DNA from: Methylocystis sp.
GTDB lineage: Bacteria > Pseudomonadota > Alphaproteobacteria > Rhizobiales > Beijerinckiaceae
Length of the DNA: 24,283 nucleotides
Assembly (NCBI GenBank): GCA_022843525.1
Contig: JALHNR010000015.1
Location: 1-24,283, forward strand
Direction: 5' to 3'
Part shown: piece after piece, positions 1,620 through 21,600 of the stretch
Layout of the letters: each line of letters starts with the position of its first letter
How positions within the stretch are numbered: position 1 is the stretch's first letter
Notes under the pieces: generated by a model
The model's database searches: none
Seen by the model: only the letters and a program-made list of their open reading frames with translations
Told to the model about the DNA's origin: nothing
Program-made: the position numbers and the translations under genes

Positions 1620-1906
1620 AAAGCATCTTTGTTGCGAAACGGGGGAGACGCTCGCAATTCGATGGCGCCAGACTGCCCGAATCAGTCTTGTTCTCTTTAG
1701 CTATAACGGCGCTTCGAAATTCCACGGACTATCGTCCGTGCCGCGGGCGTCGTTTAGCAGCTTTCCCTGCCCGCAGCGGATCAGAGACTTAGTTGCGCCG
1801 CAAAAAATCCCAGCCGTTCATGAGGATGGCATTTCCCTCAAGTGTTGCTACATTTGGCTGCGGTACGCGTTTGTCCCGCACCCGCGTTAATTTCGCCTGA
1901 GCCGTG

Positions 1907-2608: not shown

Positions 2609-2614
2609 TCAGTC

Positions 2615-2875
2615 GTGCCGGAACCCGACATGAAACACAAAGACTTTACCCGCCTCATTGACACCGTCTTCGCCGCTAAGAGCGGAGAGGAGATGCTGTG
2701 CACGGAATATTTTGATGAACTTCCACGTTACGTCGATATTGAGGCATCCGGTCAGGACGCCGGAGCCTTATTGCCCGAGGTTAAACACCATATGCATCAG
2801 TGCCCCGAGTGCGAAGAGGTTTATCTCGCCCTTCTGAGACTCGTGAACGCAGAAAAAACTTTTCCTTCGAGGTAA
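2615..2875 (+). CDS. Small zinc-binding (ZAS-type) anti-sigma factor
   Basis: This 86-aa ORF lies immediately downstream of the ECF sigma gene, 6 nt after its stop. It carries a C-x27-H-x3-C-x2-C arrangement (MLCTEY ... HHMHQCPEC) that matches the RsrA/ChrR ZAS zinc motif. It has no transmembrane segment, so it is a soluble anti-sigma. Confidence 0.6.
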   Translation: MPEPDMKHKDFTRLIDTVFAAKSGEEMLCTEYFDELPRYVDIEASGQDAGALLPEVKHHMHQCPECEEVYLALLRLVNAEKTFPSR

Positions 2876-2987
2876 GACCTCAGAATTCCGTCGCATCTAA
2901 GTCGTATCGGATCGAACTGGTTGGCGCGCGCGATCGAATCGATCGCCGGCATTGTCCCCGGTTCTCCGCTCGAAGGAGTGTGATGCG

Positions 2988-3965
2988 ATGCTAAGAACCT
3001 GGGCGCAGTTGGGGATTTCACGTTCGTTCGCGTTTTTGCTCATGTGGCCAGGCGCACTTCTCGCCGCTAGCGCAGCCTCTGCCGCCGACCAACATTTGAT
3101 CACGCTCAAAGCAAGCGCAATGCCGTCGGGTCAGCTGGCCTATGAGATGGTCAGTCACAAGGTCAAATCCTCCACAGGAAAGGAAAGCGACCTTATGGAG
3201 CGGTATGCGAGCGGTCCTACCATCCCTGGTCCCACGCTCGTCATGAAAGAGGGGGACGTCGCTGAGGTGACTCTTCAACATGGGATCGCCGACTCGGCTT
3301 TGCCGGTCAGCATCCATGTCCACGGCGTGCACTTCAAGATCGACAGCGATGGCACCATGAAGGTTTTGAATGGCGTCGCCGACGAAGCTGCGTTCCCAGA
3401 CAAACCTTACACATACAAATGGACGGCCGCGCCTGGAACGGCAGGCACGTGGGCCTATCACGATCATGCATTCGGCAATCCGATGCTCGGAGCCGAGGAC
3501 AAGGGGCTGTTCGGTACGCTCATCATCAATCCGGCGAGCGGGAAGGTTCCTGCGCTCATCGATGGCAAGATCGTCGACGTTGATCTTGCCGATGTGAAAC
3601 GCGAATTCATTATTTGGATGCATGAAACGACCTTTTGGGGCCAGGAGCTCAATCATATCATCGAGGGCGGCAAGGAGATTCCGTTATGGACTAATCCGAC
3701 CGTCGGTGCGCGCCTGGGCGAAAAGGTTCGCTTCCACGTCATGGGGCTTGGCACCGCGTTCCATACTTTCCATCTCCATGCGCATCGCTGGATCGAGCCC
3801 GGAGCAACCGCCGCCGTTGACACCGTCAACATTGGTCCAATCAGCCGCACCTCGTTCATCGTGAAGGCCGGCGAGGGTGTTGGCCCCGGCGACTGGCACT
3901 ACCACTGTCACGTTATCCAACACATGCAGTCTGGGATGATGGGTGATTTCCGCGTCATCGAATGA
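2988..3965 (+). CDS. Secreted two-domain multicopper oxidase (2dMCO)
   Basis: All four canonical MCO copper motifs appear in order: HVHGVH, WAYHDH, HTFHLHAH and HYHCHVIQHMQSGMM (the HCH-x3-H-x4-M motif carrying the T1 Cys). The protein is about 325 aa, so it has two cupredoxin domains rather than three. A signal peptide (MLRTWAQLGISRSFAFLLMWPGALLAASAASAA) is present, and an AAGGAG Shine-Dalgarno sits 10 nt upstream of the ATG at 2988. Confidence 0.8.
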   Translation: MLRTWAQLGISRSFAFLLMWPGALLAASAASAADQHLITLKASAMPSGQLAYEMVSHKVKSSTGKESDLMERYASGPTIPGPTLVMKEGDVAEVTLQHGIADSALPVSIHVHGVHFKIDSDGTMKVLNGVADEAAFPDKPYTYKWTAAPGTAGTWAYHDHAFGNPMLGAEDKGLFGTLIINPASGKVPALIDGKIVDVDLADVKREFIIWMHETTFWGQELNHIIEGGKEIPLWTNPTVGARLGEKVRFHVMGLGTAFHTFHLHAHRWIEPGATAAVDTVNIGPISRTSFIVKAGEGVGPGDWHYHCHVIQHMQSGMMGDFRVIE

Positions 3966-3992
3966 TCAATGACGAACGGGGGAGTTAAAGGC

Positions 3993-5834
3993 ATGAACCA
4001 CGCAACAATCATGAACCGCGTATCCTTTCTGACGTTGGCCGTGGCGACGACCTCGCTCGCTGCGTCGCTGTCGGCGCAGGCGAAAGACGCCGTGAAATCT
4101 GACGACGTTATCATCAGCCGCCCCGGCGTCCTACCGTCGGCCGTGCTGGAGATGACCGACGAGCCCGGCAAATGGTTCAAGGATCCCAAGAGCGGCGGCT
4201 CGCTCGTTGTGGTGAAGCCTGGCGAGGCGGTGCTCATCAAGATGACGGACACCAATACGGATCACACCATCACCAGTCTTGCCTGGCAGCCGGGCGCGGA
4301 CAAATTCCCGGTCGATCAGGAGAAGCCGTCGAACGCCAGCGTCACGCAGACCTTCGACAAACCGGGGCTCTATGTCTTCACCTGCAAGGTTCATCCCTAC
4401 ATGTTCGGCGCCGTTGTCGTCGACGATCCGAAGACGGAAGGGCTGGACATCGGCGGCGAATTGCAGCTCGTGACCGGCGCCAAAGTTCCGACGACAAGCG
4501 ACATCGCCAAGAAGCTGCTGCGCACCTTCTTCGTCGCCACGACGCCGGCGCTATGGCGCGACTATCGGCAGCCGAAGTGGGAGGTGAAGCTTCCCGATCT
4601 CGGACTCAATCTCGGCGGCGCGCAGATCAATCTGAGCGCGCTCAGCCTCTCGGCGCCGAACACGCTGCTGACGCCCCAGACGCCCGGCGTCGGCGAGGTC
4701 TGGGTCAACACGCAGTTTGAAGGCGTGAGCGGCAAGACGAAGTTCGGAACGGCGACGCAAATCGACGCGACGGACTGGACGCTCAAGAAAAAAGTCAAGG
4801 GCGTCGAGCAGAATATGAACAATCCCCACAATATGTGGCCCGATCCGACATATAAATACATTTATCAGACGGAATGGTTCGACAAGCGGCTGACCACCTT
4901 TGACCGCGAGAGCGGCAAAGTTCTTAACACACAGGTCGTTGGACAAAATCCGTCTCATGTGATGACGAGCCCGATAACCGGCATGCTCTATGTCGCCATC
5001 AATGGCGAGGACCGCGTGGCGAAACTGTCGCCTGGCGAATTCCCTTCGGCGATGGGCAACATTAATGTCGGCTCGCATTCCGGCCCGCACGGCCATCACC
5101 TCACCGACGACGGCAAATATATGATGACGCCGAACGCGCTGGCGGGAAGCGTTACCGTCGTTGATCTCGCGACCGAGAAAGCGACGGAAATTCCGACCGG
5201 CGGCGTTATCCCGATCGCGATCTGGAGCGACATGAACCATAAGGGCTATGCCGCCAATCTGCTCGGCACGCCCCCCGCCATGCTCTCCTCATTGACGGTG
5301 ATCGACATTGACAACAAGAAGAAGGTCAAGGACATCGACCTCGCTGCCGATTACGATCCGATCAGCGGCGCGCACAAGGGCGAAGCTTATGGCCTGCTTC
5401 CGATCCAGACCCCGGTGAGCCCTGACGGCAAATACGTCGTTACGGCGAACACGTTGAGCGCCACGGTCACGATCGTCGATGTGAAGACGGACAAGGTGGT
5501 GAAAAGCCTGCCCTGCGAAGCAGGCTGCCACGGCGTCAACTTCGGACACAAGAAGGGAGGCGGCTATTACGCCTATGTGGCGAGCAAATTCGCCAATGAC
5601 TTGATCGTTATCGACATGGATAAGCTCGAAGTTGTAGGCCGCATTCTGCTCGCGGATTCTAAGGACGGTCAGATCAACGCGCATAACGGCATGGGTGGAC
5701 AGGGCGTGTTGCCCTTGCCGATCGTCGAGCGGGGCATGCTTGCGCCCACGCTAAAACTCGCGGGAACAGGCAAGTTGAGCGCCGAAGTCGAGGGATGGCT
5801 CAAGCTTCTAACCAAGGAGCAACGCGGCAACTGA
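3993..5834 (+). CDS. Secreted fusion protein: N-terminal type-1 (amicyanin/pseudoazurin-like) cupredoxin plus C-terminal YVTN beta-propeller
   Basis: A signal peptide (MNHATIMNRVSFLTLAVATTSLAASLSAQA) leads a cupredoxin domain with His (DHTITS) ... FTCKVHPYMFGAVVV. This is a C-x2-H-x2-M blue-copper site. About 420 aa follow, carrying YVTN repeats (LYVAINGEDRVAKL, YMMTPNALAGSVTVVDL, YVVTANTLSATVTIVDV, AYVASKFANDLIVIDM) and several His-rich loops. A GGGGGAG Shine-Dalgarno precedes the ATG at 3993. Confidence 0.7.
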   Translation: MNHATIMNRVSFLTLAVATTSLAASLSAQAKDAVKSDDVIISRPGVLPSAVLEMTDEPGKWFKDPKSGGSLVVVKPGEAVLIKMTDTNTDHTITSLAWQPGADKFPVDQEKPSNASVTQTFDKPGLYVFTCKVHPYMFGAVVVDDPKTEGLDIGGELQLVTGAKVPTTSDIAKKLLRTFFVATTPALWRDYRQPKWEVKLPDLGLNLGGAQINLSALSLSAPNTLLTPQTPGVGEVWVNTQFEGVSGKTKFGTATQIDATDWTLKKKVKGVEQNMNNPHNMWPDPTYKYIYQTEWFDKRLTTFDRESGKVLNTQVVGQNPSHVMTSPITGMLYVAINGEDRVAKLSPGEFPSAMGNINVGSHSGPHGHHLTDDGKYMMTPNALAGSVTVVDLATEKATEIPTGGVIPIAIWSDMNHKGYAANLLGTPPAMLSSLTVIDIDNKKKVKDIDLAADYDPISGAHKGEAYGLLPIQTPVSPDGKYVVTANTLSATVTIVDVKTDKVVKSLPCEAGCHGVNFGHKKGGGYYAYVASKFANDLIVIDMDKLEVVGRILLADSKDGQINAHNGMGGQGVLPLPIVERGMLAPTLKLAGTGKLSAEVEGWLKLLTKEQRGN

Positions 5835-5945
5835 ACCATTGCAATTCAGCTCCGATGGATAGCCCCGAGCAGGGCTTCCATCGGGGTGATCAGTTGTTAC
5901 CGCAACAGACGCAGCACTCGCCGAATAATGTTAGGAGAAACGCGA

Positions 5946-6632
5946 ATGATCGAGCGTCAAGCCAACAAGACAGAACATCTGGTTTCGGCCCATGCAGATC
6001 GATTTCGTGACGGCCCGAGTCGTTTAATGGGTTTGGACAACAACTTTAGCGGAGTCCGAAGGTCGAAGCGTACCCAGGCTGAAGCTGAAGCGGCTGTGCG
6101 GGTTCTTATCGAATGGGCAGGCGACGATCCGAACCGCGAAGGTTTGATCGATACGCCTGAGCGGGTGGCGCGTTCTTATCGCGAATTGTTCGCTGGCTAC
6201 GCCGCCGATCCTCGCGAATATCTCAAGCGCACGTTCGAAGAAGTGGGCGGTTATGACGAGCTGGTCGTATTGAAGAACATCCGCGTCGTTACTTTTTGCG
6301 AACATCACATGCTGCCGGTGATCGGACGCGCGCATGTCGGTTACCTGCCGACAAACCGGGTCGTGGGAATCTCCAAACTGGCGCGGGTCGTGCACGGATT
6401 CGCGCGTCGATTACAGATTCAGGAGAAGCTAACCGCTGAGATCGCCGAAGCCATCCAGGAAATTCTCGAGCCGCAAGGAGTAGGAGTGGTCGTCGAGGCC
6501 GAACACAGTTGCATGACCTTGCGTGGCGTGAACACGCTCGGATCCACATTGACCACTAGCCGGTTACTCGGCGTAATCCGCGACGACGCCCGCTCACGAG
6601 AGGAATTCCTCGGCATGGTGCGCCGAGCCTAG
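5946..6632 (+). CDS. folE: GTP cyclohydrolase I (FolE type I)
   Basis: FolE signature stretches are present: [29 protein letters not shown] (the CEHH zinc site), GISKLARVV and QIQEKLT. An AGGAGAAAC Shine-Dalgarno precedes the ATG at 5946. The ORF's upstream extension to 5886 is probably not translated. Confidence 0.85.
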
Positions 6633-6704
6633 AATTTGGACCAGCGGCTGACGAAAGAAGCATTGGGAGCGGAACGCCATGGAAGATGGCATTCTCTAAG
6701 TTCT

Positions 6705-6765
6705 CCCGCTTGTAATTTTGCCTCGACCCGAGGGACCGGCTCTAGATGGAGACCGTTGCACGAGC
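6705..6765. repeat. Roughly 60-bp element also present at 19415-19478
   Basis: cttgtaattttgcctcgacccgagggaccggctctagatggagaccgttgcacgagcg is compared with cttgtaatttgtccccgagccaagggatcggctcgagatggagacctttgcccgaatcgcg. Both end with an ATGGAGACC start-like codon context. Confidence 0.5.
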
Positions 6766-7018
6766 GTTGTCGCCGATAATAGCTCGAGCCTTGAATCTGG
6801 AAGACGGGGGGTTTCCAAATCTGGAGATCCGCAACGGTGAGCTCGTTGGAACGATAGTTGCTTGTGCGGTAGAAATGCGCGCTGACCTGATCGTTATGCA
6901 GACCGATGGTCGCGATAGCGCTTTGGACTCGATCATCGGGAGCACAACCGAGCGCGTCATACACGAAGCGCCTTGCTCCCTAGATGACGTGAACCGAGAG
7001 CGTCTGTTTGGAAGGTAG
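6746..7018 (+). pseudogene. Universal stress protein (UspA-family) C-terminal fragment only
   Basis: ELVGTIVACAVEMRADLIVMQTDGRDSALDSIIGSTTERVIHEAPCSL matches the Usp C-terminal ATP-binding half (ADLIVMG..GR..L....GS..E.V...A.CPVL). An in-frame TAG lies immediately upstream of the first Met, so the N-terminal half is missing. Confidence 0.4.
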
Positions 7019-7057
7019 CGGCGACTCGGGAACTTTCACAGGGTGCTTTGCTTTTTG

Positions 7058-9409
7058 ATGCGCAGCGCCTGCCGGTTCGCTGCTGAGTTTCAGGAGGGCG
7101 TCGTGGAAAGCGCGCGTAAACTCTGGATCACGCTCATCGCCCTGTTGGTGCTCTCCTTTGCCGTGCTTCTGCTCATCGGCCGGGAAATAAGCGTCAAGGC
7201 GCCGCCTTTGCCCGAGCGCGTCGTTACGGAAACAGGACGCACGGTCTATACCCGTGCTGACATCGAGCGCGGGCGTCAGGTCTGGCAGTCCATCGGCGGC
7301 ATGCAGCTCGGCTCCGTCTGGGGCCATGGCGGCTACGTCGCGCCAGACTGGACCGCCGACTGGCAGCACCGAGAACTCGTCGCCATCCTGGACGCCTGGG
7401 CGCGCCGCGAGTTCGCGGCCGGCCGCTACGCTGATCTCAGCGAGGAGCAGCAGAGTTCTCTGCGGGGACGGCTGCGCCCGATGATGAGGCGAAACACCTT
7501 CGATCCGAAAACTGGGACAATTACTGTTTCTGAGGAGCGCGCTCAGGCGATCGACCTCGTCTCGAGCCACTATGAGAGCCTGTTCGGCGACGATCCGCGC
7601 AGTGCGGAACTTCGCGAGAACTACGCAATGAAGAACGGCACTGTCGACGACGCCGAGCATCGGCGGGCGCTAGGCGCCTTCTTCTGGTGGACCGCGTGGG
7701 CCGCGACCACGGAGCGGCCGGGAAGCCACGTCACCTACACCAACAACTGGCCGAGCGAACCGCTGGTCGACAACCGCCCGCCTGCGACCACCTTCATCTG
7801 GTCTGCGTTCAGCGTGGTATTCCTGCTTGCCGGCATCGGCCTGCTCGGCTGGCACCGCGCCGTCAGTCATGCACACGGCGCCGAGACGTGCGATGTGCCC
7901 GCGCGTGATCCGATGCGCAACGTAAGGGTCACGCCGTCCATGCGCGCGACCGCCAAATATTTTTGGGTGCTTCTTGCCCTGTTTCTCGTCCAGATCCTGT
8001 TCGGCGCCATAAGCGCCCATTACCAGGTCGAGGGGCAGCTGTTTTACGGCTACCCGATGGCGGAGATCCTCCCCTATTCGATCACCCGCACCTGGCACAC
8101 GCAATTGGCCGTGCTGTGGATCGCCACCGCCTGGCTCGGCACTGGGCTCTACATGGCGCCGGCGATTTCCGGGTACGAGCCCAAGTTCCAGGCGCTCGGC
8201 GTCAATGTGCTCTGGATCTGCTTGCTGATCATTGTGGTCGGCGCCTTCGCGGGCCAATGGCTCGCGGTCATGCAACGGCTGGGATTGGAACACAATTTCT
8301 GGTTCGGGCATCAGGGCTGGGAGTATGCCGATATCGGGCGTTTCTGGCAGTGGTTCCTTTTTATCGGCCTGCTGCTGTGGCTCTCCCTCGTCGGCCGCGC
8401 CTTGTGGCCGGCGCTACTGGCAAAAACTGAGTCACGCTCGATCGTCGCTCTTTTCTTCCTCTCGACGGTCGCAATTGGCCTGTTCTACGGCGCGGGGCTG
8501 ATGTGGAACGAGCATACGCATCTGTCGATGGTCGAATATTGGCGGTGGTGGCTGGTTCACTTGTGGGTGGAAGGGTTTTTCGAGGTGTTCGCCACCGCGG
8601 TCGTCGCCTTCCTGTTCACCCGCCTCGGCCTGGTCGCAGTCAAGCCGGCAACTTCGGCGGTGCTGTTCGCGACGATCGTCTTTATGGCCGGCGGCGTGAT
8701 CGGCACGCTCCATCATCTCTATTTCGCCGGCACTCCGATGTCGGTGTTGGCGCTTGGCGCCAGTTTCTCCGCGCTCGAAGTCGTGCCGCTCGCCTATATC
8801 GGCTTCGAGGCCTATGAGCATTGGCGGTTCTGCGGCGCCACGCCCTGGATGCAGCGCTATAAATGGCCCGTGCTGTTCTTCATCGCGGTCTCCTTCTGGA
8901 ATCTGGTGGGAGCCGGTCTGTTCGGTTTCCTGATCAACCCGCCGCTCTCGCTCTATTACATGCAGGGGCTCAACCTGACACCGCTGCACGGCCACACGGC
9001 GCTGTTCGGCGTCTATGGGATGCTCGGCATCGGCCTCGTGTTGTTCTGCCTGCGCGGAATGATGCCCGAACTCGTCTGGAACGAGAAGATCCTCAGCATC
9101 AGCTTCTGGTGCTTCAACGTGGGGCTGGGGATGATGGCGTTGTTCACGCTCCTGCCGCTCGGCACGCTGCAACTCCTTGCCGCGATCAATGAAGGTTATT
9201 GGTACGCCCGCTCTGAGCAGTTCATGCAGCAGCCGATCGTCGATCTTCTGGTATGGATGCGCGTGCCGGGCGACACGGTCTTTTCGATAGGCGCATTGGC
9301 CTTCGCCTGGTTCGTTGTCAGCCTGTGGCTCCGGCCGCGCCGCCAGCCTCATGAAGTGGAGCAGGAGGACAGGGAACTGGAGGCGGGACCGGCGAAGCGT
9401 GCGGCGTGA
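7058..9409 (+). CDS. norB: Quinol-dependent nitric-oxide reductase, single-subunit large NorB (qNOR/NorZ)
   Basis: The length is about 770 aa, as in qNorB. It has the N-terminal NorC-like periplasmic extension without a CXXCH haem motif. A heme-copper oxidase core with the His ligands follows: HLWVEGFFEVFATA, GTLHHLYFAG and FHQLDL-equivalents. Many transmembrane segments are present. The N-terminus aligns to the qNorB consensus: KLWITL, APPLPERVV, GGMQLGSVWGHGGYVAPDWTADW, TYTNNWPSEPL. The start is uncertain between the ATG at 7058 and the GTG at 7103; an AGGAGG Shine-Dalgarno lies just upstream of the latter. Confidence 0.9.
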   Translation: MRSACRFAAEFQEGVVESARKLWITLIALLVLSFAVLLLIGREISVKAPPLPERVVTETGRTVYTRADIERGRQVWQSIGGMQLGSVWGHGGYVAPDWTADWQHRELVAILDAWARREFAAGRYADLSEEQQSSLRGRLRPMMRRNTFDPKTGTITVSEERAQAIDLVSSHYESLFGDDPRSAELRENYAMKNGTVDDAEHRRALGAFFWWTAWAATTERPGSHVTYTNNWPSEPLVDNRPPATTFIWSAFSVVFLLAGIGLLGWHRAVSHAHGAETCDVPARDPMRNVRVTPSMRATAKYFWVLLALFLVQILFGAISAHYQVEGQLFYGYPMAEILPYSITRTWHTQLAVLWIATAWLGTGLYMAPAISGYEPKFQALGVNVLWICLLIIVVGAFAGQWLAVMQRLGLEHNFWFGHQGWEYADIGRFWQWFLFIGLLLWLSLVGRALWPALLAKTESRSIVALFFLSTVAIGLFYGAGLMWNEHTHLSMVEYWRWWLVHLWVEGFFEVFATAVVAFLFTRLGLVAVKPATSAVLFATIVFMAGGVIGTLHHLYFAGTPMSVLALGASFSALEVVPLAYIGFEAYEHWRFCGATPWMQRYKWPVLFFIAVSFWNLVGAGLFGFLINPPLSLYYMQGLNLTPLHGHTALFGVYGMLGIGLVLFCLRGMMPELVWNEKILSISFWCFNVGLGMMALFTLLPLGTLQLLAAINEGYWYARSEQFMQQPIVDLLVWMRVPGDTVFSIGALAFAWFVVSLWLRPRRQPHEVEQEDRELEAGPAKRAA

Positions 9410-9421
9410 TCCGCCACTTGC

Positions 9422-9820
9422 ATGGAAGCCTATTACTTCGAGATTCGCGCTGTCCACATCGCGGCGGCGCTCGCGAGCGGCGGCTTCTACCTTATGCGCG
9501 CGCTCGCTTTAAACTTGCTCGCCGCGTCATGGCCGCTGTCGATAGTCGCGCGGCTTGCCTCCTACTCGATCGATACCGTGCTCTTTACGGCTGCCCTCAT
9601 GCTGATGGCCGTCACGCGTCAATACCCGTTTGGTGACACTTGGCTGACCATGAAGGTCGTGGTCATGCTGCCGCTCTATATTTTCCTTGGTTACTGGGCG
9701 CTCCGAGCCAAGGCGTTCAAGTTGCGGTTGGCGGCGATGGCCGGCGCGATCGCGGCTTTTCTTTTGATTTATAGCATCGCACGCACGCACAGCCCGCGGG
9801 GCGTGTTTGCGCTTGGGTGA
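9422..9820 (+). CDS. Small 4-TM membrane protein, SirB2/YchQ-like
   Basis: This 132-aa ORF has four predicted hydrophobic helices. It resembles the SirB2 family, pairing AVHIAAALASGGFYLMRA against the HIIAAFASVALFLLRG-type. It starts 10 nt after the norB stop. Confidence 0.45.
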   Translation: MEAYYFEIRAVHIAAALASGGFYLMRALALNLLAASWPLSIVARLASYSIDTVLFTAALMLMAVTRQYPFGDTWLTMKVVVMLPLYIFLGYWALRAKAFKLRLAAMAGAIAAFLLIYSIARTHSPRGVFALG

Positions 9821-9861
9821 GAAACGTCGTCAGCTTGGTCGGCCTTGCCTCGAACCCGCCT

Positions 9862-11070
9862 TTACGTCGTTGGATGCAAGCGCTTCGTCGTCAACATCCC
9901 GAAATAGAGCAGCACGAAGAGCCCGTACGCCAAGCTCCACATGCCCCCGGCGGCGGCGATCGCAGCAAAGTAATACGCGCCCGTAAAAGGGGCGCCAATG
10001 CGCAGGATGGCCGCAAATGTTATGGCGATGTAGATCGCGGCCGTTCTCTGATCTGCGACGAGCGGGCGCCCGGTGTGGCCGCGCGTTGCACGAGTCATCA
10101 CCGCGAGCGTCATTGTTCCGATGGCGCCGACGGTGAGGGCATGCAGAGGCGCTGCAGAATCCGTGGCCCAGAATAGTTTGTTGCCGCCCATGAGCAGGAA
10201 GCCCAAGGGAACCCAGCCATATCCCAGATGCAGCACGAAGAGCATCGGTTCCGCCCGCGCGCTGACGCCGCGCCAGCGGATAAGACGTAGAAAGAGCGCC
10301 GCCCCGGCGATAATCAGGAGACCCGCCGTAGGCCCCGCGTCAGGGAACGCGGCCCAGGCGATGAGCGCCACAAGCGTCGCCGCCAGCGCGAAACGATCGA
10401 AAGCGCCGAAAGGCGCCGGCTCCACTTCAGCTGGCGAATTCTTCGCGAGCCAGTTGCGGGTGAAGCTCGGCGTGATGCGCCCCCCGATGATGGCGATGAG
10501 CATGACGAGGGTCGCGACGCCGACGCGGGCCCCGATGGCGCCCGTTGCGGCAAGGCCGATCGCTTCGAGATGCGTGAGCAAATTCCCGATAAAGAGAAGC
10601 GCAAGAGCGGCCACCATGGGCAAGTTGCGCCAGTTCCGCCCCGTGGCGATCTCGCGCGCGACAACGAAGATAAAGACCGCCGGGAAAGCGAGGTCGAGCG
10701 CCGCAGAGACGAGCGCAGGCGCACTATTTGAAGTCAGGACGGCGATGCGCCCCAGCAGCCAGAGAGCGACGAGGCCGGCGAGCGGCGCGCCTTGTAAGGG
10801 CAGTCGACCGGTCCAGTTTGGAATGGCCGTCAGCAAGAATCCCGCGACGACGGCGCCGCCAAAACCGAAGGCCATTTCATGCGCGTGCCAGAGAGAGGGC
10901 GCGAAGCGTGTCGGCAGTTCGGCCGCCGCCTCCAGATAGGCGATGGAGAGCGGCAGCCCGACAGCGGCCCAGAGCGCGGCAAAAAGGAAGAAGGGGCGGA
11001 AACCCGCTGAAAGAAAGATCGCCACAGGGTTTTGACTCGCCTGAGCGCGATATCGCGGAATTGGAGGCAT
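9862..11070 (-). CDS. nnrS: NnrS family heme-copper membrane protein (NO-response)
   Basis: The 402-aa protein is polytopic with about 12 transmembrane segments. It carries the NnrS hallmark N-terminus GFRPFFLFAALWAAV ... SLWHAHEMAFGFGGAVVAGFLLTAIPNWTG. It is convergent with the norB cluster. Confidence 0.85.
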   Translation of the reverse strand: MPPIPRYRAQASQNPVAIFLSAGFRPFFLFAALWAAVGLPLSIAYLEAAAELPTRFAPSLWHAHEMAFGFGGAVVAGFLLTAIPNWTGRLPLQGAPLAGLVALWLLGRIAVLTSNSAPALVSAALDLAFPAVFIFVVAREIATGRNWRNLPMVAALALLFIGNLLTHLEAIGLAATGAIGARVGVATLVMLIAIIGGRITPSFTRNWLAKNSPAEVEPAPFGAFDRFALAATLVALIAWAAFPDAGPTAGLLIIAGAALFLRLIRWRGVSARAEPMLFVLHLGYGWVPLGFLLMGGNKLFWATDSAAPLHALTVGAIGTMTLAVMTRATRGHTGRPLVADQRTAAIYIAITFAAILRIGAPFTGAYYFAAIAAAGGMWSLAYGLFVLLYFGMLTTKRLHPTT

Positions 11071-11084
11071 CGTTGACTTCCCCT
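10460..11084. repeat. Roughly 620-bp segmental duplication of the nnrS 5' region (second copy at 18703-19324)
   Basis: The two copies align by eye with only scattered substitutions and one in-frame 3-nt indel (gccgccgcctcc versus gccgtctcc). The homology stops about 15 bp upstream of the nnrS start codon at one end and inside nnrS codon about 204 at the other end. Confidence 0.75.
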
Positions 11085-11688
11085 TTGGAATTGATGATGG
11101 GCTGGCGCTCGGTCACTAACGCACACATCGAGCGCGCAGGTCGCGAGCCTCGCGTTAGAAGCCAGCGGAATGTCACGGAGGGGAGGGGAAGATCAATAGG
11201 CCTTCTCTTGCGACACCATTCCTTCTTCTACGCGGATTCCCCGCAGATTGCGAAGGCGTTGCGAGGAAAGCGTCGCGCGCCACCGGCGTGGGTTGCGCTC
11301 GGGGCGTTCCTCGCCCTTGTGACCGCGACGACATGGATATCGACGAGCTCTTCCGCGAACCGCCGCGGGCGGCTGAGCGATAGTGGCCGAATTCGGTAAC
11401 GCGATGGCCAAGCCGAACGCGCGTCACTGCCACTCGTGGTCAAATCGCGGCGCTCCCTGATCAGTGGTGCAGGATCCGTGCAACCTCATGATGGCGCTCC
11501 GGCCAGCGCGACAAGCATATCGACTCGGTCGTCACGAGCTCCATCAGCTGCGCCTCGGTAAAATCCTCTGTCGCTGCTGGCCTTTCAGGAATTACGAAAC
11601 ACCGCGCCGTCCCGCTGCTGTCCCACACCCTGATCTCCGTTTCCTCGGGCAGTGGACGCCAACCTCGGCGAGCACTTTCCGCGGCTCG

Positions 11689-11960
11689 CGGGCCGCGCGG
11701 GCGCGAAATACCGGATCGGCAATCCCAGCACCGGCCATGGGAAGCACGAGCAAAGCGAGCAGATGATCAGGTTGTGCACCTCGGGCGCGTTAGCGACGGC
11801 CCGCAGGTGCTCGCCCTCGGCGCCGGCCATTCCCTCGGGCAGGTCGAGTTTGGCAATTGCGGCCGGGGTGTCGGCCAGGAGCCGGGCCAAGAAGCCCGCG
11901 TCGGTCCACGCTCGCACGACGATCTTTCTTGCCGTTGAGCGGACGCGGTCCTGCGGATAC
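11689..11960 (-). pseudogene. Nitrile hydratase alpha-subunit-like remnant (N-terminus missing, C-terminus divergent)
   Basis: KIVVRAWTDAGFLARLLADTPAAIAKLDLPEGMAGAEGEHLRAVANAPEVHNLIICSLCSCFPWPVLGLP aligns to NHase alpha. It retains the metal-binding C(S/T)LCSC claw motif. The expected N-terminal roughly 80 aa are absent, and the frame is not alpha-like beyond GLPIRYF. Confidence 0.5.
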
Positions 11961-11972
11961 TTGAATGGCCGC

Positions 11973-12643
11973 TCATGCAGGTTCCTCCAAGTATATCTCG
12001 AACAGTTCGGCGTAAAGCGTCTGCGCGCCGGGTTCCGCGCGCGGACCCCACAATTCGGTCGGCGTGAACTCGACGATGTAGACGGGCATTGGATCGCCGA
12101 TGCCATCGCCAGTGTGCCAGAAGTAGACACAGTCGCCTTCGAGCACCTGCGCCACCGTGCCGCTCCGCCCCCGCAGATAGCCGGGCAGGCGAGTGTGCGC
12201 GCCAACTGGGACATTTGCGATCCGGACCCGCTGCCCGACGGCGAACTTCGAATGCGCGACGTCGCGCCGCGGGCTGTCGCCGTTACGTAGATATGCGATG
12301 ATCTGCTCGTCGATGGCTTCAGCCCGATCGGATCCCCTGGCCGAGCGCCGTCCGGCCTGGCCGCTTCGCCACGCAGTTAGCTTGTCCGCGAGGCTAATTC
12401 GTCCTCGCGCAGGTATCCTTGTCGACGAGGAATGGGGATGCCGCTGAGCCACTTCTCGTAGTAACGGAATTTGAAGTAGTCGAATGGATCCATCGCCTCG
12501 GCGCCAGCGCGCAGATCCGCCCATGTCCACATGTCGCGGAAGGCGGTCGGCACGTAGGCGATCGCGCAGGCCGGCACGGACGAGTCGAGATGGCCCGAGA
12601 GAGCCATCATCGCCACATAGATGCCGAATATCCGATTTCCCAC
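11973..12643 (-). pseudogene. Nitrile hydratase beta-subunit-like remnant, split by a frameshift
   Basis: The N-terminal piece (12377-12643: WTWADLRAGAEAMDPFDYFKFRYYEKWLSGI) sits in one frame. The C-terminal SH3-like piece (within 11973-12320: QRVRIANVPVGAHTRLPGYLRGRSGTVAQVLEGDCVYFWHTGDGIGDPMPVYIVEFTPTELWGP) sits in another. Both resemble NHase beta, and the frame changes near 12330-12420. Confidence 0.5.
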
Positions 12644-12817
12644 TGCCTCGGCAGGCTGGTTCAGAAAAAAGGGTCAATTCGGATCTGGAGCGCTTTTCCG
12701 ACGTTGTCCAAAATAGGCTCAGAGTTGTGGAAGGCAAAGGCCGCAACACGCCGACGGTGGAATCGGAGGATCAGGGACGACGCGCGCGGAAGATGCGGAG
12801 CGGCGGCGAATGAGCGC

Positions 12818-13130
12818 ATGACGCCTAAAGAAGTTGTCGCGCTGGTTCTTCAAGGCGGCGGCGCGCTCGACGCCTATTAGGCGGGCCCGTTCGAGGCGCT
12901 CGCGGCGGGGGATATTGTCCGCAGTGGCTCGCCGGCATTTCGATCGGCGCGATCAACGCCGTGATCATTTGCCGCAATCATCCGGAAAAGCGCGTCGAGC
13001 GCCTGCGCGCCCTTTGGGAACGCGTGATAAGCAGGACGCCCCTTCCCTTCAATCTGGACGGATTCCTCGGTCCCATTTTTGCCAACGCCAGCGCAAATCC
13101 CCTAGCGACGGTTGGCGCGCCCGGTTTTTA
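12818..13130 (+). pseudogene. Patatin-like phospholipase N-terminal remnant (nonsense codon plus frameshift, truncated)
   Basis: MTPKEVVALVLQGGGALDAY is followed by TAG where Gln (AYQAG) is expected. After a roughly 1-nt frame change near 12910, the sequence continues WLAGISIGAINAVII, which is the GxSxG nucleophile elbow. The remainder of the gene is absent, and an ECF sigma gene on the opposite strand follows. Confidence 0.5.
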
Positions 13131-13261
13131 GGCTGCGTCTACCGCCTCCGGCCCTCTTATGGCCCTATTCAGCGCCCGGCTATCCCACCTCATATCTTCC
13201 CTTCCGAATAGTTCCATCAAGCAGACTTATGCGGCTGAGGTACGGGGCTCTCGACCCGCCG

Positions 13262-13975
13262 CTACTCTTCGCTGGCCAGCCCTTCCGCTTTACAGCGTTC
13301 GAGGACACCGGTCACGATGCGGTCGCACCGCGCGCCGGCGAAGGCGAAAACGTCGCTTAAGCCCGCGTCCATCTCCTGGGCAAGGCTTTCGCGCAACAGG
13401 CTGCTAGCTCGGAAGAAGCGCGTACGCACCGTCGCCTCGGGGATCTCCAGCGCCTCGGCGGTTTCTTCGACGCTCATCTCCTCGATCGCGCGCAGCATGA
13501 ACACCGTCCGGAAGGCCTCCGGCAGAAGGTCGATGCGCGCCTCCAAGAGCTTGCGCATCTGAACCCGCATCATCGATTGTTCTGGGCTACGCTCAGGCTC
13601 ATCGTTCAGCGCTGTCTGGGCTTCAGATTCATGGGGCGTCATGGCAGCTTCCAAAGGAATGATCTGGGCACTCTTTCGCCACAAGCGGCCGAGCGCTTCA
13701 TGGGTCGTGATCCGCACAAGCCAGGTATAGAGCTTGCTCTCGGCGCGATAGTTTCCAAGCGCGCGCCACGCCCGCAGATAGGTGTCCTGGACGACATCCT
13801 CCGCCTCCGCATCATTGTGCACGATGCTACGCGCCGTACGGAACAGAAGCTGGTTGTGCCGTCGCATGATGGCTTCGAACGCCACTCCGTCACCGTCAGC
13901 GGCGCGCGAGATCAGCTCTGCCTCCGGCGTGGTTTTCGATAAGCTATTTGCCGCCTGACGCTGAAGTGATTGCAT
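13262..13975 (-). CDS. ECF-family sigma factor with a C-terminal extension
   Basis: ELISRAADGDGVAFEAIMRRHNQLLFRTARSIVHNDAEAEDVVQDTYLRAWRALGNY matches region 2. LPEAFRTVFMLRAIEEMSVEETAEALEIPEATVRTRFFRA matches region 4. About 40 extra C-terminal residues follow, including two Cys (ARCDRIVTGVLERC). A GGAGG Shine-Dalgarno precedes the ATG at 13975, and the ORF's upstream extension reaches 13987. Confidence 0.8.
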   Translation of the reverse strand: MQSLQRQAANSLSKTTPEAELISRAADGDGVAFEAIMRRHNQLLFRTARSIVHNDAEAEDVVQDTYLRAWRALGNYRAESKLYTWLVRITTHEALGRLWRKSAQIIPLEAAMTPHESEAQTALNDEPERSPEQSMMRVQMRKLLEARIDLLPEAFRTVFMLRAIEEMSVEETAEALEIPEATVRTRFFRASSLLRESLAQEMDAGLSDVFAFAGARCDRIVTGVLERCKAEGLASEE

Positions 13976-14195
13976 TTGCGCCTCCATTCATTGAACAGGT
14001 AGGCTACCGGCGTGCCTTTGCCGGCGCTGCCGCTATAGGGATCGCGCGCGCCGCGTCTTCCGGATCGCGCAGCAATTCCATCATGCCCGCGACCATCGCG
14101 AAAGCGATCAACGCGTCGATGAGTATCACGGCTCCTTTCCGGGCGTACGGGCGATGGCGGGGCGCCGTTCCGTCGTCGCCCTTGGCGTTGTCCGA

Positions 14196-14609
14196 CTAAT
14201 GTTCGAACTTCGTTGGGAAGGCGGCGATCAAACCGTTGGTCAGGGCATCGGCCAGCATCATCATATGAGCCTCCGCCTTTCCATATTCGGCGATGCCGTT
14301 GGCATATTTGCCCTGCAAAAGCCCCGTGGCGTAGACCACAGTTGTGTCGATATGCCCCTTGAGCCTGTCGCGTACCTTGGTTTGCGGCCAGTTCTCGTTC
14401 GCCTTGGCGAGAAAATCGGCAATTTCCTGCGCGTTTGCGTAGGCGGCTGCGACGGACTTGTCGGTGGCCGGCTTGTCGCCGGCCTTGGCGGCTTTCACGA
14501 CCTCGACGGCTGCGCCGATATGCTCCTGAAGCAGCTTGGTGAGCGCGTTACCAGCTGCATCGCCATAGAAGGGCTTGATAGCGTCGCCGATATCGGGCTG
14601 GTTCTGCAT
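14196..14609 (-). CDS. Hypothetical Cys-free helical (probably periplasmic) protein, 137 aa
   Basis: The ORF has no recognisable family. Its predicted secondary structure is alpha-helical, and it is Ala/Lys-rich with a Met-rich stretch ([10 protein letters not shown]). Its ATG overlaps by 1 nt (TGATG) the stop of an upstream 43-aa ORF that is purely a signal peptide. Confidence 0.45.
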
Positions 14610-14740
14610 CAGTCGCGCTGCATGTTAACGGAATAGGCGGCGGTCGGGCGGAAAACGGGAGTAGCCATAAGTGCGGCGGCGAAGCCCGCAAGGGCGAGGC
14701 GGCGATTAACGGCCGGGTGGAACATCTGCACGCGTGTCAT
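14609..14740 (-). other. 43-aa ORF encoding only a Tat/Sec-like signal peptide, probably the frameshifted 5' part of the downstream gene
   Basis: [43 protein letters not shown] has a strong AAGGAGAA Shine-Dalgarno 6 nt upstream. It ends 1 nt into the next ORF's ATG. A signal peptide with no mature domain is implausible as a standalone gene. Confidence 0.35.
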
Positions 14741-14809
14741 GACGGTTCTCCTTGGTCGATCAGTTTGCGTAGCGGCCGGTGTGATCGACTCGATGCGGCC
14801 CCGTACATT

Positions 14810-15137
14810 CGATGCGACCCTTTCGCGCTGCGTTCCCGTTGCACGAGATTTTTTTGGGGGAAAAGAGAAAGCTTCCGAGCAGGTCGAGCGGCAGAGTACG
14901 GTCAACTCTAAAACATCCTGCGACAACACAAGCGCTGGATCGTAAACGGGCTGCGGAGGCGCTAAAACTCATAGCGCCTCCGCTATCGCACCAGCGTGAA
15001 TTTACGGGGGTTCCCGACGGTACGATATTTCTGTACAGAGCGGTAGCTGCCGCTCAGTTTTTCTCCGCACTCGCGCCCTGTATATTAGATGCGACCATTC
15101 CGCGCTGCGTTCCCGATGCAGGAATATTTTTGGCTTT
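14810..15137. repeat. Two copies of a roughly 50-bp direct repeat about 280 bp apart (14810-14862 and 15089-15137)
   Basis: gtacattcGATGCGACCcTTtCGCGCTGCGTTCCCGtTGCAcgAGATTTTTTTGG is compared with gtatattaGATGCGACCaTTcCGCGCTGCGTTCCCGaTGCAggAATATTTTTGG. On the minus strand both read GGGAACGCAGCGCG.AA.GGTCGCATC. Confidence 0.5.
14943..14974. other. Strong hairpin (12-bp perfect stem, 7-nt loop)
   Basis: GCGGAGGCGCTA-aaactca-TAGCGCCTCCGC sits in the intergenic region between the split secreted-protein gene and DUF488. Confidence 0.4.
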
Positions 15138-15231
15138 AGGCGTGTGGCCGGGTTTGTTCGCTTGGGCGCGAGCATCGAGGCGTTGCTCGAAGCTCTGGCG
15201 TCGAAGCGCTGCCAATGCTGCGAGCGGCGGA

Positions 15232-15759
15232 CTACGGATAGATAACGGCGCCGTCAGGTTGAATGACCGCGCCTGGAGTGAGATGGGCCGGCTCCAGACG
15301 ACCTTCCCCCAAAATGTGGAAAACGGTCTCCCCGCTGGCGATAAGATAATCGGCGACGATGCGGCGGTGGCATCGCCACCATACGGCTTCCGAACACATG
15401 ATGGTACAGCGCCGCTTGCGTCCTCTGTCCAAGAGGTGTTGGAGGCCTGCCTGAAACTGTGTAGTAAGCGCATAATCGGCGTAGTTGTGGAAACTCTCGT
15501 TCGTCCAGAAGGCGTTGACAGTCGGAGATATGCCGCGTGACCTTCCACGAAGGCCACCGAGGGCAGCCATATGTTCATAAGAGATGGCGACGGCCGCCAA
15601 GGCGCCGGGAAGCGTGTTCTTGTCAAACTGTGGATTGGTTCGTGACTTCGGAATCGTTCTGATGTCCGCGACAAGAGCGATATCGGCTTCGCGCAGCAGA
15701 CCGATGAAAGCCTCGAGGGTTCGGTTGGAATGGCCGATGGTGAAAAACGGAAGCTTCAC
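15232..15759 (-). CDS. DUF488 family protein
   Basis: FTIGHSNRTLEAFIGLL...IALVADIRTIPKSR...F...L...L...GISYEHMAALGGLRG ... CSEAVWWRCHRRIVADYL matches the conserved DUF488 (YeaO-like) blocks. Confidence 0.75.
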   Translation of the reverse strand: MKLPFFTIGHSNRTLEAFIGLLREADIALVADIRTIPKSRTNPQFDKNTLPGALAAVAISYEHMAALGGLRGRSRGISPTVNAFWTNESFHNYADYALTTQFQAGLQHLLDRGRKRRCTIMCSEAVWWRCHRRIVADYLIASGETVFHILGEGRLEPAHLTPGAVIQPDGAVIYP

Positions 15760-15771
15760 GCGCGGCCTTCG

Positions 15772-15981
15772 TTATGCATAGTCGAGCGCGCCGCCCTTAT
15801 GCGCTGCGATGTGATCTGTCTTGTCGCTTTTGATTTCGTACTGGGGATCGTCTTTCGACGCGTGATGCGTGTGGCCTTTATAATCGAAATCTCTAATGTG
15901 AATGGCGATGATAGTCCCCGACACGCGTCCGGCCTCGGAGTTCCAGCTCACATGATCGCCGATCTTAAACTTCCGTGCCAT
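15772..15981 (-). CDS. DUF2945 (HVA1/Tudor-like) small protein
   Basis: The 69-aa sequence MARKFKIGDHVSWNSEAGRVSGTIIAIHIRDFDYKGHTHHASKDDPQYEIKSDKTDHIAAHKGGAL matches the DUF2945 consensus (KFK.GD.V.WN...G...G.I...H......G.....AS...P.Y.I..D....). Confidence 0.7.
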   Translation of the reverse strand: MARKFKIGDHVSWNSEAGRVSGTIIAIHIRDFDYKGHTHHASKDDPQYEIKSDKTDHIAAHKGGALDYA

Positions 15982-17063
15982 CGCTGCGTCCTCCCGGTTC
16001 CAAGAAGCGCTTCTCCCAAACAGATGGATCCGAAGTCTACGCCCGGCGCCAGCACCACGGAAGCCTAGGTCGTCGGCAGCCGGAAGGTGAAGGTCTCCAG
16101 AAAATTCAGTTCGACGGCCGTGCTGGAATAGCTCGTGTAACCAACGGATATGTCCCGACCGATATCTAACTCGAAGTCACCGCTGCAGGTCGTGCGCACG
16201 ACGCTGCCTTCAATGGCGGGCGCCAGATGATCCCTCCGTCCACCATACGCTCAAGATGGTGAAAAACCGGATAGCCCTGGACGCTTCCGCCACTCGCGGC
16301 GGTGTAGGTGTCTAGCCCGAGCACGAGCGCGTACGGACCGTGTCGCCGGCGAGCCGCAACTGGCTGACCCGCCTGAGCGAGGCGCTTGGGTAACCCGGAC
16401 GTTGGAAGGCAGCACAACGCCCTGATTGCTGCTGGCCTCGCGAATGGTGAATGCCTGCCGCAGCGTACCCATCGGACACAGCGCGATCCTTTGCAAAGGG
16501 GATTTCCCGGGCACCCAATCTGAATCCATTGCGCCGCGCTCCACGTCGTCGATCGCTTGCCGCGTCAGACCGTCTGGAATACGATCCAGAACGACTTGCC
16601 GACCCTGAAACAGCAGATGACGACGGGGACGAAGATGACTGCTGAATGGGACAGGTTCACGCTACGGAAATTGCCATGCTGAGGCTGATCCTGATAGCAA
16701 ACAGCCACGTTACCATTTTGCCAAGCCTTTGTATCAACCCGCCAATTCTGAATCCAACAATGGGCACGCAATTAGCCGATGAAGACGGCAAAGATGCAGC
16801 TTGCGTGATCGGTGAGCAATTTTCTGTCTTTCACCAAGGATGGCGTCCCGTCTGATGTTCTTCCTGCTACTTTCACCATTGACAGGCTTAGGTCCGACTC
16901 AGTTATCCTTGTCACGGCGATCGAGTTCGCGCTCAACCGCCTGCGGCTGATGACCCCTGCTCTACATTGTGTCGGAGTCCGTCGTTGCTCTAGTCGACAA
17001 CCGCGGATGATGTCGCGTAATACCGCCCAGTAGCGATTATAGAACGGAGCGAGGGTGGCGATC

Positions 17064-18647
17064 ATGGATAGGCCGGCCCGAATGATAGGCTGGCGATTCC
17101 TGCTGCTGAATGGCGCGGCGGGGGCGGCGAATGTCGTCATGCTCTCGAACGTTCCGGGCTACACGGTGCTCGCGCCCTATGCCGCCGGCAGTCTGCAGGG
17201 CGTGACGCCGAGCTTCGGCACCTGGGCGACCACCGACCACATGGTGGGAATCGCGCTCGGCCTGCCACTGTCGCGGTGGTTCTCCGGGCGCTTCGGCGAC
17301 TATCGCGTGCTGATCGGCGCGCTCGTTGTCTACGCCATCTTCTCGCTGATGTGCGCGGCGAGCGAAACCATCTGGTTTTTCGCGCCGATGCGCTTTCTCC
17401 TCGGACTTGCCGGCGGCGTCGCCCTTCCGCTCGCCCAATCCGTGACGCTTGCGCAATATCCGGATCACCAGCGCACGCTCGGCGTCGGCTTCTGGGGCGT
17501 CATGAGCATGGCGCCCTTCACCATCGGCGTATTCATGGGCGGCTTCTGGGCCGAATATTTCGACTGGCGCTGGCTATTTTATTCCAACGTCTTGGTCGTG
17601 ATGCCCGTCGCGGCGATCATCGCCGCGCTGTTCTACCGGCGCGGCTTTCAGCGCCGCATGACGCGCTTCGATACGATCGGCTTCATTCTGCTCGCCGCGG
17701 TGCTGCTCGGCGTGCAGACGATTCTCAACATGGGCAATGATTTCGACTGGTTCGCGGAGCCTCTCCTCGGATGGCTGCTGCTCGTCGTGCTGCTGGCGCT
17801 GCCGATGTTCATCTTTTGGGAGTTCGGCGAACGACGGCCCGCGCTAGACCTGCGTCTGTTTCTGCATCGCAACTTCGCCATCGCGACTTTCTGCTCGATC
17901 GTCGGCTTCCTGGTGATTCAGGGCCTGCTCTCGGTGTTCATCGTGCAATTGCAGGTGCTGCTCGGCTACACGTCCTCGCTCGCCGGCATGGTCTATCTGA
18001 TCATGATTTTTCTGGCGATGGCGGCCGCGGCCGTCGTGCATGAAATCACGAGGAACGTCGACGCGCGACTGATCGTGTTCCTCAACTTCATCGGTCTCGC
18101 AGTGACCTTTGTCTGGCTCGGACAATACGACAAGAACGCCTATTTCGATGACGTCAAGACGCCGATGTTCTTTTTCGGCTTCTCGCTCGCGATGTTTTTT
18201 GCGCCGCTCGCTACCCTCGCCATGACCGGGCTCGTCGGCGAACGACTGATCCGCGCGGCGGAAGAGCTCGCGATGCTGCGCACCGTGGCCGGCGCCCTGG
18301 GCATCTCGCTGCTCGGCGTTCTCTTCTTCCGCCGAACGCCGTTCCATCAGCTCGATCTCGCCGATCATTTCGGCGGACGGCGCTTCGCCTCGCTCGACCT
18401 GCTCGCCACTTTCCTGGATCGCATGCAGGCGATGGGCATGTCGCCCACCGCCGCGCAGAGCCGCGCGGCGCAGCTCATTCGACAGCAGGCGTCGATCCTC
18501 GCGCTCAACGACGTCTTTCTGTTCGGCGCAATGGCGTTCATCCTGCTCTCGGGAGTCGTCTGGCTCGCCTATCCAAGCTACGCGTCCAAGAAGCGCAAAC
18601 AATCGCTAACACGGCTTTCCGCCGAGGAACTGATGGAGCAGCCCTGA
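17064..18647 (+). CDS. MFS transporter, 14-TMS drug:H+ antiporter (DHA2/EmrB-like) type
   Basis: The protein is about 528 aa with about 14 hydrophobic segments. It carries MFS motif A (SGRFGDYRVLIGAL), typical GxxxG-rich helices and a PMRFLLGLAGGVALP block. The start is either the ATG at 17064 or the GTG at 17055. Confidence 0.85.
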   Translation: MDRPARMIGWRFLLLNGAAGAANVVMLSNVPGYTVLAPYAAGSLQGVTPSFGTWATTDHMVGIALGLPLSRWFSGRFGDYRVLIGALVVYAIFSLMCAASETIWFFAPMRFLLGLAGGVALPLAQSVTLAQYPDHQRTLGVGFWGVMSMAPFTIGVFMGGFWAEYFDWRWLFYSNVLVVMPVAAIIAALFYRRGFQRRMTRFDTIGFILLAAVLLGVQTILNMGNDFDWFAEPLLGWLLLVVLLALPMFIFWEFGERRPALDLRLFLHRNFAIATFCSIVGFLVIQGLLSVFIVQLQVLLGYTSSLAGMVYLIMIFLAMAAAAVVHEITRNVDARLIVFLNFIGLAVTFVWLGQYDKNAYFDDVKTPMFFFGFSLAMFFAPLATLAMTGLVGERLIRAAEELAMLRTVAGALGISLLGVLFFRRTPFHQLDLADHFGGRRFASLDLLATFLDRMQAMGMSPTAAQSRAAQLIRQQASILALNDVFLFGAMAFILLSGVVWLAYPSYASKKRKQSLTRLSAEELMEQP

Positions 18648-18689
18648 GAGACCGTTTGAGAATGGTTGCGACGGAGATAGGGGCGTGAT

Positions 18690-20223: not shown

Positions 20224-20445
20224 ACTCCGCTGGATCAACTGGTGGAGATCCGTCGCAAGATTGCCGATTTAAAGCGGCTCAAGCGGGGGATGGAGGAAAT
20301 GGCGGCGCAGTGCAGCGGAAAGCGAACGCCCGAATGCGCGATCATCGACGCTCTTTTCGATACGCGGCATCCATCCGATGAACACCGTGGGCGTCAGCCG
20401 CCATCCAAGAGTGCGCGCGCGGCGAAGAGCGCCTTGCCGATCTAA
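20224..20445 (+). pseudogene. C-terminal fragment of a CueR/HmrR-type MerR-family copper-responsive regulator
   Basis: PLDQLVEIRRKIADLKRLKRGMEEMAAQCSGKRTPECAIIDALFD carries the dimerisation helix plus the C-x7-C metal-binding loop followed by (I/L)IxxL, as in CueR. A TGA sits in frame immediately upstream, and no HTH N-domain lies in any frame upstream. Confidence 0.5.
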
Positions 20446-21593: not shown

Positions 21594-21600
21594 ATCGAAC

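Follow-up and report, generated by a model that had tools for sequence, protein, structure and literature searches.

The 24,283-bp Methylocystis sp. contig JALHNR010000015.1, a complete contig of its NCBI draft assembly and hereafter called the window, carries two versions of the gene nnrS. The window codes for a YncE-like propeller protein, an extracytoplasmic function (ECF) sigma factor, a two-domain, nirK-like copper oxidase, FolE, a quinol-type nitric oxide (NO) reductase, SirB, an intact NnrS, a second ECF sigma factor and an MFS transporter, with ssb, parA and parB/korB located at its right end. It represents part of a Methylocystis-type plasmid and holds an NO-handling block made up of the nirK-like copper oxidase, the quinol NO reductase, sirB, nnrS, the ECF sigma factors and the MFS transporter. 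A second, truncated nnrS lies about 8 kb from the intact gene, between the MFS transporter gene and the plasmid backbone. Comparison of the two genes with each other and with those of related plasmids indicates that the truncated version is probably a non-functional relic of a distinct nnrS, left behind at a rearrangement junction.

The intact and the truncated nnrS

The intact gene (positions 9862-11070, minus strand) encodes a 402-amino acid protein that matches the Pfam NnrS profile PF05940 from end to end (profile positions 2-371 of 371, E = 5e-112, 375 bits). The truncated open reading frame (ORF), nnrS' (18690-19310, minus strand), specifies 206 amino acids, made up of NnrS residues 1-202 and four unrelated residues (KSRA) ahead of the stop codon. 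Its match to the profile covers positions 2-188 of 371 (192 bits) and does not reach the ~371 positions, or the ~400 residues, of a full-length family member. Thus nnrS' lacks the C-terminal half of NnrS, as stated in a preliminary description of this DNA.

Both genes take part in a direct, same-strand repeat of ~620 nucleotides (nt), which had been noticed before and is recovered by self-comparison of the window and by full alignment. We refer to the repeat unit inside the intact gene (10461-11083, minus strand; nnrS codons 1-203 and 13 nt upstream) as copy 1 and to the truncated unit (18704-19323, minus strand) as copy 2. Self-comparison splits the repeat into two blocks of 91-92% identity (10461-10760 with 18704-19003 and 10925-11083 with 19165-19323), the homology is continuous in the full alignment, and the spacing changes from 8243 to 8240 nt at a 3-nt indel. 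Homology of this extent is far beyond chance. The two copies are not near-identical, however, as had been claimed. They agree at 560 of 607 aligned positions (92.3% identity), with 47 substitutions distributed evenly along the repeat (7.4-7.9% divergence) and 16 amino acid differences, and copy 2 has lost one codon by an in-frame 3-nt deletion. The longest exact runs common to both measure 56, 49, and 42 nt, and copy 2 could in principle act as a recombination substrate, as had been suggested.

The start codon is present in both copies (11070 in copy 1 and 19310 in copy 2, minus strand), together with a GGGGAAG motif resembling a ribosome-binding site. Upstream of the ATG the copies are homologous for 13 nt, or for ~22 nt when the alignment may include a 3-nt gap, close to the ~15 bp given previously. 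At its other end, copy 2 stops shortly behind the convergently oriented MFS transporter gene (17055-18647, plus strand; Pfam MFS_1). The preliminary figure of ~40 bp past the MFS stop codon agrees with the end of the ORF, 42 nt past position 18647, and the nnrS homology itself ends 56 nt past it.

NnrS is described, in a passage of PMC3345576 citing Bartnikas et al. 2002, as a membrane protein of Rhodobacter sphaeroides that contains heme and copper, and the same source presents it as an NO-stress protection factor in Vibrio cholerae. Among 122 full-length homologues, six histidine residues are invariant (122/122; positions 62, 64, 167, 281, 310, and 332 of copy 1). Copy 2 retains the first three (His-61, His-63, and His-166) and lacks the three located in the C-terminal half. 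Given the heme and copper content ascribed to NnrS, losing half of these invariant residues is likely to disable the protein. The copy 2 product has about 6 hydrophobic segments compared with about 12 in full NnrS, and the N-terminal conserved motifs, including WHAHEM, are kept. Whereas copy 1 is a full-length member of PF05940, copy 2 derives from the family but matches only half of the profile; it is a fragment of an NnrS family member and not a member in working order. We found no solved structure related to NnrS. In a protein collection of 5.8 billion clusters, the 206-amino acid product forms a singleton cluster contributed by this contig only.

Junction and plasmid context

Plasmid unnamed2 of Methylocystis rosea BRCS1 is colinear with positions 1-18705 of the window (96-98% identity), and so are pGW6_2 of M. 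rosea strain GW6 and one Methylocystis metagenome-assembled genome (MAG). The MFS transporter gene is the last gene of this shared block. Colinearity with M. rosea stops at 18705 and the nnrS homology of copy 2 begins at 18704, one base away. The comparison with related genomes that had been proposed earlier establishes that copy 2 is missing from both M. rosea plasmids and from the MAG. Within the 35 kb examined of the M. rosea plasmid there is no second nnrS, and the sole match to copy 2 is the single nnrS gene of that plasmid (90.7%). Copy 2 is thus cut short next to DNA that has no relation to nnrS, and the relatives that share the synteny do not have it.

The novel junction between the MFS 3' flank and the middle of nnrS (18698-18705) displays a few bases of microhomology (GGG..TGA). 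Neither terminal inverted repeats nor a second copy of the right end of the block are present in the window or at the M. rosea locus, and we have no evidence that the NO block is a discrete transposon. Because the three sequences share only a few bases, and because no inverted repeat or second block end could be located, the join appears to be an illegitimate one at the level of microhomology.

Past the junction-equivalent point, the M. rosea plasmid carries unrelated DNA with an N-terminal fragment of an IS5-like transposase gene (27163-27426 of locus L001, BRCS1 unnamed2) and a tniB fragment (27395-28018). The latter is ~91% identical to tniB of M. parvus and M. iwaonis plasmids. On this side, the M. 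rosea locus is likewise littered with the remains of mobile elements.

To the right of copy 2 we find a 1.5-kb patchwork that consists of 265 nt of unassigned DNA, a tniA-like remnant and a merR-like fragment, and then the plasmid backbone. The remnant of a tni-type transposon (19607-19885, minus strand) comprises the first ~60 nt of a gene for a DDE-type (TniA-like) transposase and ~220 nt upstream of it. It is 83% identical over 282 nt to M. rosea pGW6_1, where the match overlaps the start of an annotated DDE-type integrase/transposase gene, followed by a gene for a Mu-transposase C-terminal domain protein and by tniB. The second fragment (20202-20445, plus strand) represents the C-terminal part of a gene for a merR-like helix-turn-helix (HTH) regulator; it is 81% identical to part of the HTH gene adjoining merTPA in M. 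rosea unnamed1, and 76% identical to merR in the metagenome contig L085 (see below). The backbone genes ssb, parA, and parB/korB (20846-23972, plus strand; Pfam ParB_N and KorB) share 74-83% identity with M. rosea unnamed1 and ~80% with a plasmid of M. parvus (OBBP). This backbone type differs from that of the M. rosea plasmid carrying the shared left block.

The window and the M. rosea plasmid form a mosaic. Most 200-nt bins are 97-100% identical, and the MFS gene reaches 99.5-100% in the bins covering 17401-18600. Identity falls to 82-93% over the middle and 3' half of the intact nnrS (9801-10800; 82-90% in the 3' half); the gene as a whole has 92.8% DNA identity. The 5' end of the NO reductase gene (7001-7400) shows a drop as well, to 88-90%. 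The low-identity bins suggest allele-sized recombination patches, and alleles have evidently been exchanged among these plasmids, judging from the bin-wise identities.

Descent and probable decay of the truncated copy

Over the 5' half of the gene, copy 1 is closer to the M. rosea allele (96.1% identity) than to copy 2 (92.3%), and copy 2 is 91.1% identical to M. rosea. Site patterns agree, with 37 positions at which copy 1 and M. rosea share a base, compared with 14 for copy 1 and copy 2 and 7 for copy 2 and M. rosea. In the first 270 nt of nnrS, copy 1 has 2 differences from M. rosea (99% identity), and copy 2 has ~20 differences from both (92.6% identity with copy 1). At ~10 of these ~20 sites, copy 2 carries the state of the outgroups, which are the allele of locus L084 from another assembly, Methylocystis sp. 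JAN1 and M. parvus. Since copy 2 retains the outgroup base at sites that are derived in both copy 1 and M. rosea, it split off before these two separated. The synonymous distances are consistent with the same branching order, copy 1 being 0.12 from M. rosea, 0.21 from copy 2, and 0.27 from L084; the nonsynonymous distance between copies 1 and 2 is 0.04. The preliminary description had seen a recent rearrangement in copy 2. It does lie at a rearrangement junction, but as an outgroup to copy 1 and M. rosea it does not qualify as recent, and the divergence of these alleles would seem to exclude a recent duplication of the neighboring nnrS.

In L084, nnrS is part of a norB-sirB-nnrS module. Homology between copy 1 and this allele (88.9% identical to copy 2) ends at position 11083, which is also where homology between copies 1 and 2 ends. 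Copy 2 matches L084 as far as position 19341, 31 nt upstream of its ATG. The three nnrS alleles thus lie in three upstream contexts, all of which diverge within 13-31 nt of the start codon, and this fits an origin of copy 2 from an nnrS in another context. The upstream limit appears to be a normal module boundary. We therefore do not retain the proposal that the promoter-proximal region of nnrS was carried along. Neither searches of protein collections, of cluster members and of species-representative genomes nor a copy 2/copy 1 chimera query returned any full-length allele that resembles copy 2 more closely than copy 1 does. In the search with the copy 2 protein itself, every match listed was 360 amino acids or shorter, so that full-length genes did not appear there.

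We also considered gene conversion between the two copies. The sites at which copy 1 agrees with copy 2 cluster at gene positions 274-321, where they are interspersed with changes found in copy 2 only. This cluster is better explained by an L084-like patch in the M. rosea allele, and gene conversion is not supported.

The overall ratio of nonsynonymous to synonymous divergence (dN/dS, omega) between the copies is 0.19, a value that taken by itself would point to selection. Polarizing the changes alters this view. Under strict polarization, in which copy 2 has to differ from both copy 1 and M. rosea and its base has to be absent from two outgroups, the branch of copy 2 receives 15 nonsynonymous and 9 synonymous changes. 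Majority polarization with three outgroups yields 13 nonsynonymous and 13 synonymous changes for copy 2, compared with 3 and 12 for the copy 1 lineage. Omega is ~0.4-0.6 on the copy 2 branch and 0.09-0.16 for intact alleles, and the copy 2 branch lies outside the purifying selection typical of the family (omega of about 0.1-0.16). With 15 of 24 changes being nonsynonymous, omega ≤ 0.2 is rejected (p ≤ 0.006) and neutrality is compatible with the data (p = 0.18). The asymmetry in nonsynonymous changes between copy 2 and the copy 1 lineage (13 versus 3) has p = 0.02. Seven replacement residues of copy 2 are never seen among the 122 homologues. One of these seven, P91S, affects a proline that is invariant in 122/122 sequences, and another, A174D, is located within a hydrophobic segment.

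Taken together, we propose to read copy 2 as a relic without function that preserves the 5' half of a second nnrS, a gene other than the intact one located 8 kb away. We place the probability of this reading at roughly 0.7, a figure that covers uncertainty about the origin of copy 2. The second gene would once have been full length and would have resided in its own context, separate from copy 1. A single illegitimate recombination or deletion event, with only a few bases of microhomology, would then have fused the downstream flank of the MFS gene to a point midway through the second nnrS, removing the 3' half of the latter and the intervening DNA. The remaining stump would have kept its start codon and ribosome-binding motif and drifted under relaxed constraint. 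It now belongs to a 1.5-kb scar in which fragments of other genes (tniA', merR') separate the NO block from the ssb-parA-parB backbone. Copy 2 resembles other gene remnants at mosaic plasmid junctions in being truncated at a microhomology junction, in being surrounded by fragments of other genes, in its absence from close plasmids and in its excess of amino acid changes. It differs from them in that its frame is open and only moderately decayed, and in that neither an insertion sequence end nor a target-site duplication is found at the junction. Our proposal that copy 2 has lost its function is based on the truncation and on the relaxed constraint, and we find no disabling lesion inside the retained part.

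Several observations weigh against this reading. The 202 retained codons contain neither stops nor frameshifts and the sole indel is in frame. Copy 2 is unchanged at 76 of 77 columns conserved at ≥ 95%, and the start codon and the ribosome-binding-like motif are kept. An open frame and conserved columns leave a weakly selected function conceivable, although the same features would also be expected of a young to middle-aged pseudogene at about 4% branch divergence. The selection signal is moderate, with Fisher's test on the nonsynonymous and synonymous counts of copy 2 and the copy 1 lineage giving p = 0.10. Mosaic exchange among the plasmids makes clock-like age arguments unreliable. The junction is known from the assembled contig sequence alone. 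Finally, the nearest relative of copy 2 is its neighbor, copy 1 (91.6% amino acid identity), which leaves room for an old origin in situ.

Such an origin would involve a head-to-tail duplication of the 8243-bp segment 10461-18703, the second unit of which was later deleted down to ~620-640 nt, while the M. rosea plasmids either never acquired the duplication or collapsed it by homologous recombination. As in known tandem segmental duplications, the repeats are direct and the junction joins the end of one unit to the start of the next, with a spacing of 8240-8243 nt; copy 1 being the closest known relative and the uniform 7.4-7.9% divergence would fit as well. Any direct truncated copy would yield this geometry, however, and copies that are 8% diverged, a second unit of 0.6 kb and a far end at a natural module boundary set the locus apart from such duplications. 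The duplication would have to predate the split between copy 1 and M. rosea and to have been lost precisely from two M. rosea plasmids and one MAG, and the second deletion would have to end by coincidence on the boundary 13-31 nt upstream of the ATG. In addition, the adjoining MFS region is 99.5-100% identical to M. rosea, yet copy 2 is 8-9% diverged. Since the upstream boundary is common to three contexts, and since a tandem duplication requires a coincidental end point as well as losses, we favor a foreign allele as the probable source of copy 2 and regard the tandem scenario as unlikely. The recent segmental duplication originally envisaged, carrying the 5' end of nnrS with its promoter-proximal region, would account for two direct copies, start codon included, on a single contig, but we give it next to no weight in view of 92.3% identity, a dS of 0.21, the outgroup position of copy 2 to copy 1 and the M. 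rosea allele, and upstream sharing of only 13-22 nt. An assembly artefact, such as a chimeric contig or a mis-join between two co-occurring strains or plasmids, comes to mind with a draft contig that makes up the whole window and a junction 32-mer that has no exact match in a collection of metagenome contigs, a result that is uninformative either way. The copies, however, differ at 47 sites within one contig, which does not describe a collapsed or doubled repeat; a mis-join in the assembly graph requires a shared k-mer, whereas microhomology at the junction amounts to only a few bases and the junction lies on the repeat's edge, not inside it; and copy 2 carries substitutions that no known allele shares. 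We thus consider an artefact quite improbable.

A second set of alternatives concerns function. The preliminary description allowed for expression of a useful N-terminal NnrS fragment, and a stand-alone half-NnrS with six helices could be envisaged to function in the membrane by itself, as a dimer, or through interference with the full-length protein. Its frame is open with an in-frame indel, ATG and ribosome-binding-like motif are retained, about six hydrophobic segments and His-61, His-63, and His-166 are kept, and the pairwise dN/dS of 0.19 is low; moreover, an N-terminal half of nnrS has been fused to a cupin domain in another genome. The low pairwise value, however, mostly reflects divergence before the truncation, the branch itself showing an omega of 0.4-0.6. 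The invariant Pro-91 and three invariant histidines are gone, six other residues are unseen in the family, the protein is a singleton, and we could recognize no sigma-70-type promoter upstream of copy 2, although this is weak evidence. We also asked whether NnrS is an internal 6+6 duplication, an architecture that would lend credence to a half-protein dimer, and rejected the idea; a BLASTP comparison of the N- and C-terminal halves came back empty and a profile-profile comparison (hhalign) with 112 sequences returned a probability of 0.07. Together, these findings render a functional half-NnrS very unlikely. We see likewise only a slim chance that the stump is not inert, be it that the 206-amino acid, six-helix N-terminal half acts as a modulator or subunit, or that the repeats act as a recombination switch. 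If such a switch existed, recombination would delete an 8.2-kb segment with the ECF sigma factor and MFS transporter genes and create a hybrid nnrS.

The nnrS-cupin fusion is found on the JGI metagenome contig Ga0620843_0000155 (L085), where a truncated nnrS is joined in frame to a ChrR-like cupin domain (8001-9083, 360 amino acids), ~1-5 kb from a merA-merP-merT/merR cluster. As in copy 2, the gene is cut centrally and mer genes are nearby, and the DNA is 81% identical to copy 2. In contrast to copy 2, the break lies ~25 codons later, the ORF continues into the cupin domain, and neighbors and orientation are different. The fusion arose independently of copy 2.

In annotation, copy 2 should be labeled an nnrS fragment or a pseudogene; it represents neither a second NO-stress gene nor a sign of recent duplication. 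It marks the point where an NO-detoxification block, 96-98% identical to M. rosea plasmids, meets a different plasmid backbone. This is consistent with such blocks being moved around between Methylocystis plasmids through both illegitimate and homologous recombination. Copy 2 is an ordinary by-product of this reshuffling, with little consequence beyond annotation.

Other features of the window

A 55-nt element upstream of copy 2 (19416-19470) is 84% identical to positions 6709-6763, a stretch that precedes the quinol NO reductase gene (7043-9409) by ~280 nt and is conserved in the M. rosea plasmid. At both places the element has plus orientation, opposite to that of nnrS'. Rfam contains no match to it, the pattern used to look for it in the other loci gave no hit, and no Rfam family is detected anywhere in the window. 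The element may be a regulatory site.

In the backbone, the palindrome AGTTTGTCCnGGACAAAC occurs three times between ssb and parA (21658-21675, 21781-21798, and 21888-21905), each time inside a 43-nt direct repeat, with spacings of 107-123 nt. None would be expected by chance, and the palindrome is absent from all fetched loci. We assign these sites as probable partition (centromere-like) or operator sequences. The parA gene appears to be split into a 157-amino acid ORF (22169-22642) and, in a different frame, the C-terminal portion of ParA (22639-22794). The homologue in M. rosea is one undivided gene encoding 259 amino acids, and the split could reflect a frameshift or a sequencing error.

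A 57-nt direct repeat with 82% identity (14798-14854 and 15075-15131, 277 nt apart) is located in a region without Pfam-recognizable genes, and the M. rosea plasmid has both of its copies as well. Between the intact nnrS and the second ECF sigma factor gene, an ORF on the minus strand (11973-12749) codes for a nitrile hydratase beta C-terminal domain, and a 115-nt indel relative to M. rosea maps to its edge (bin 11801-12000).

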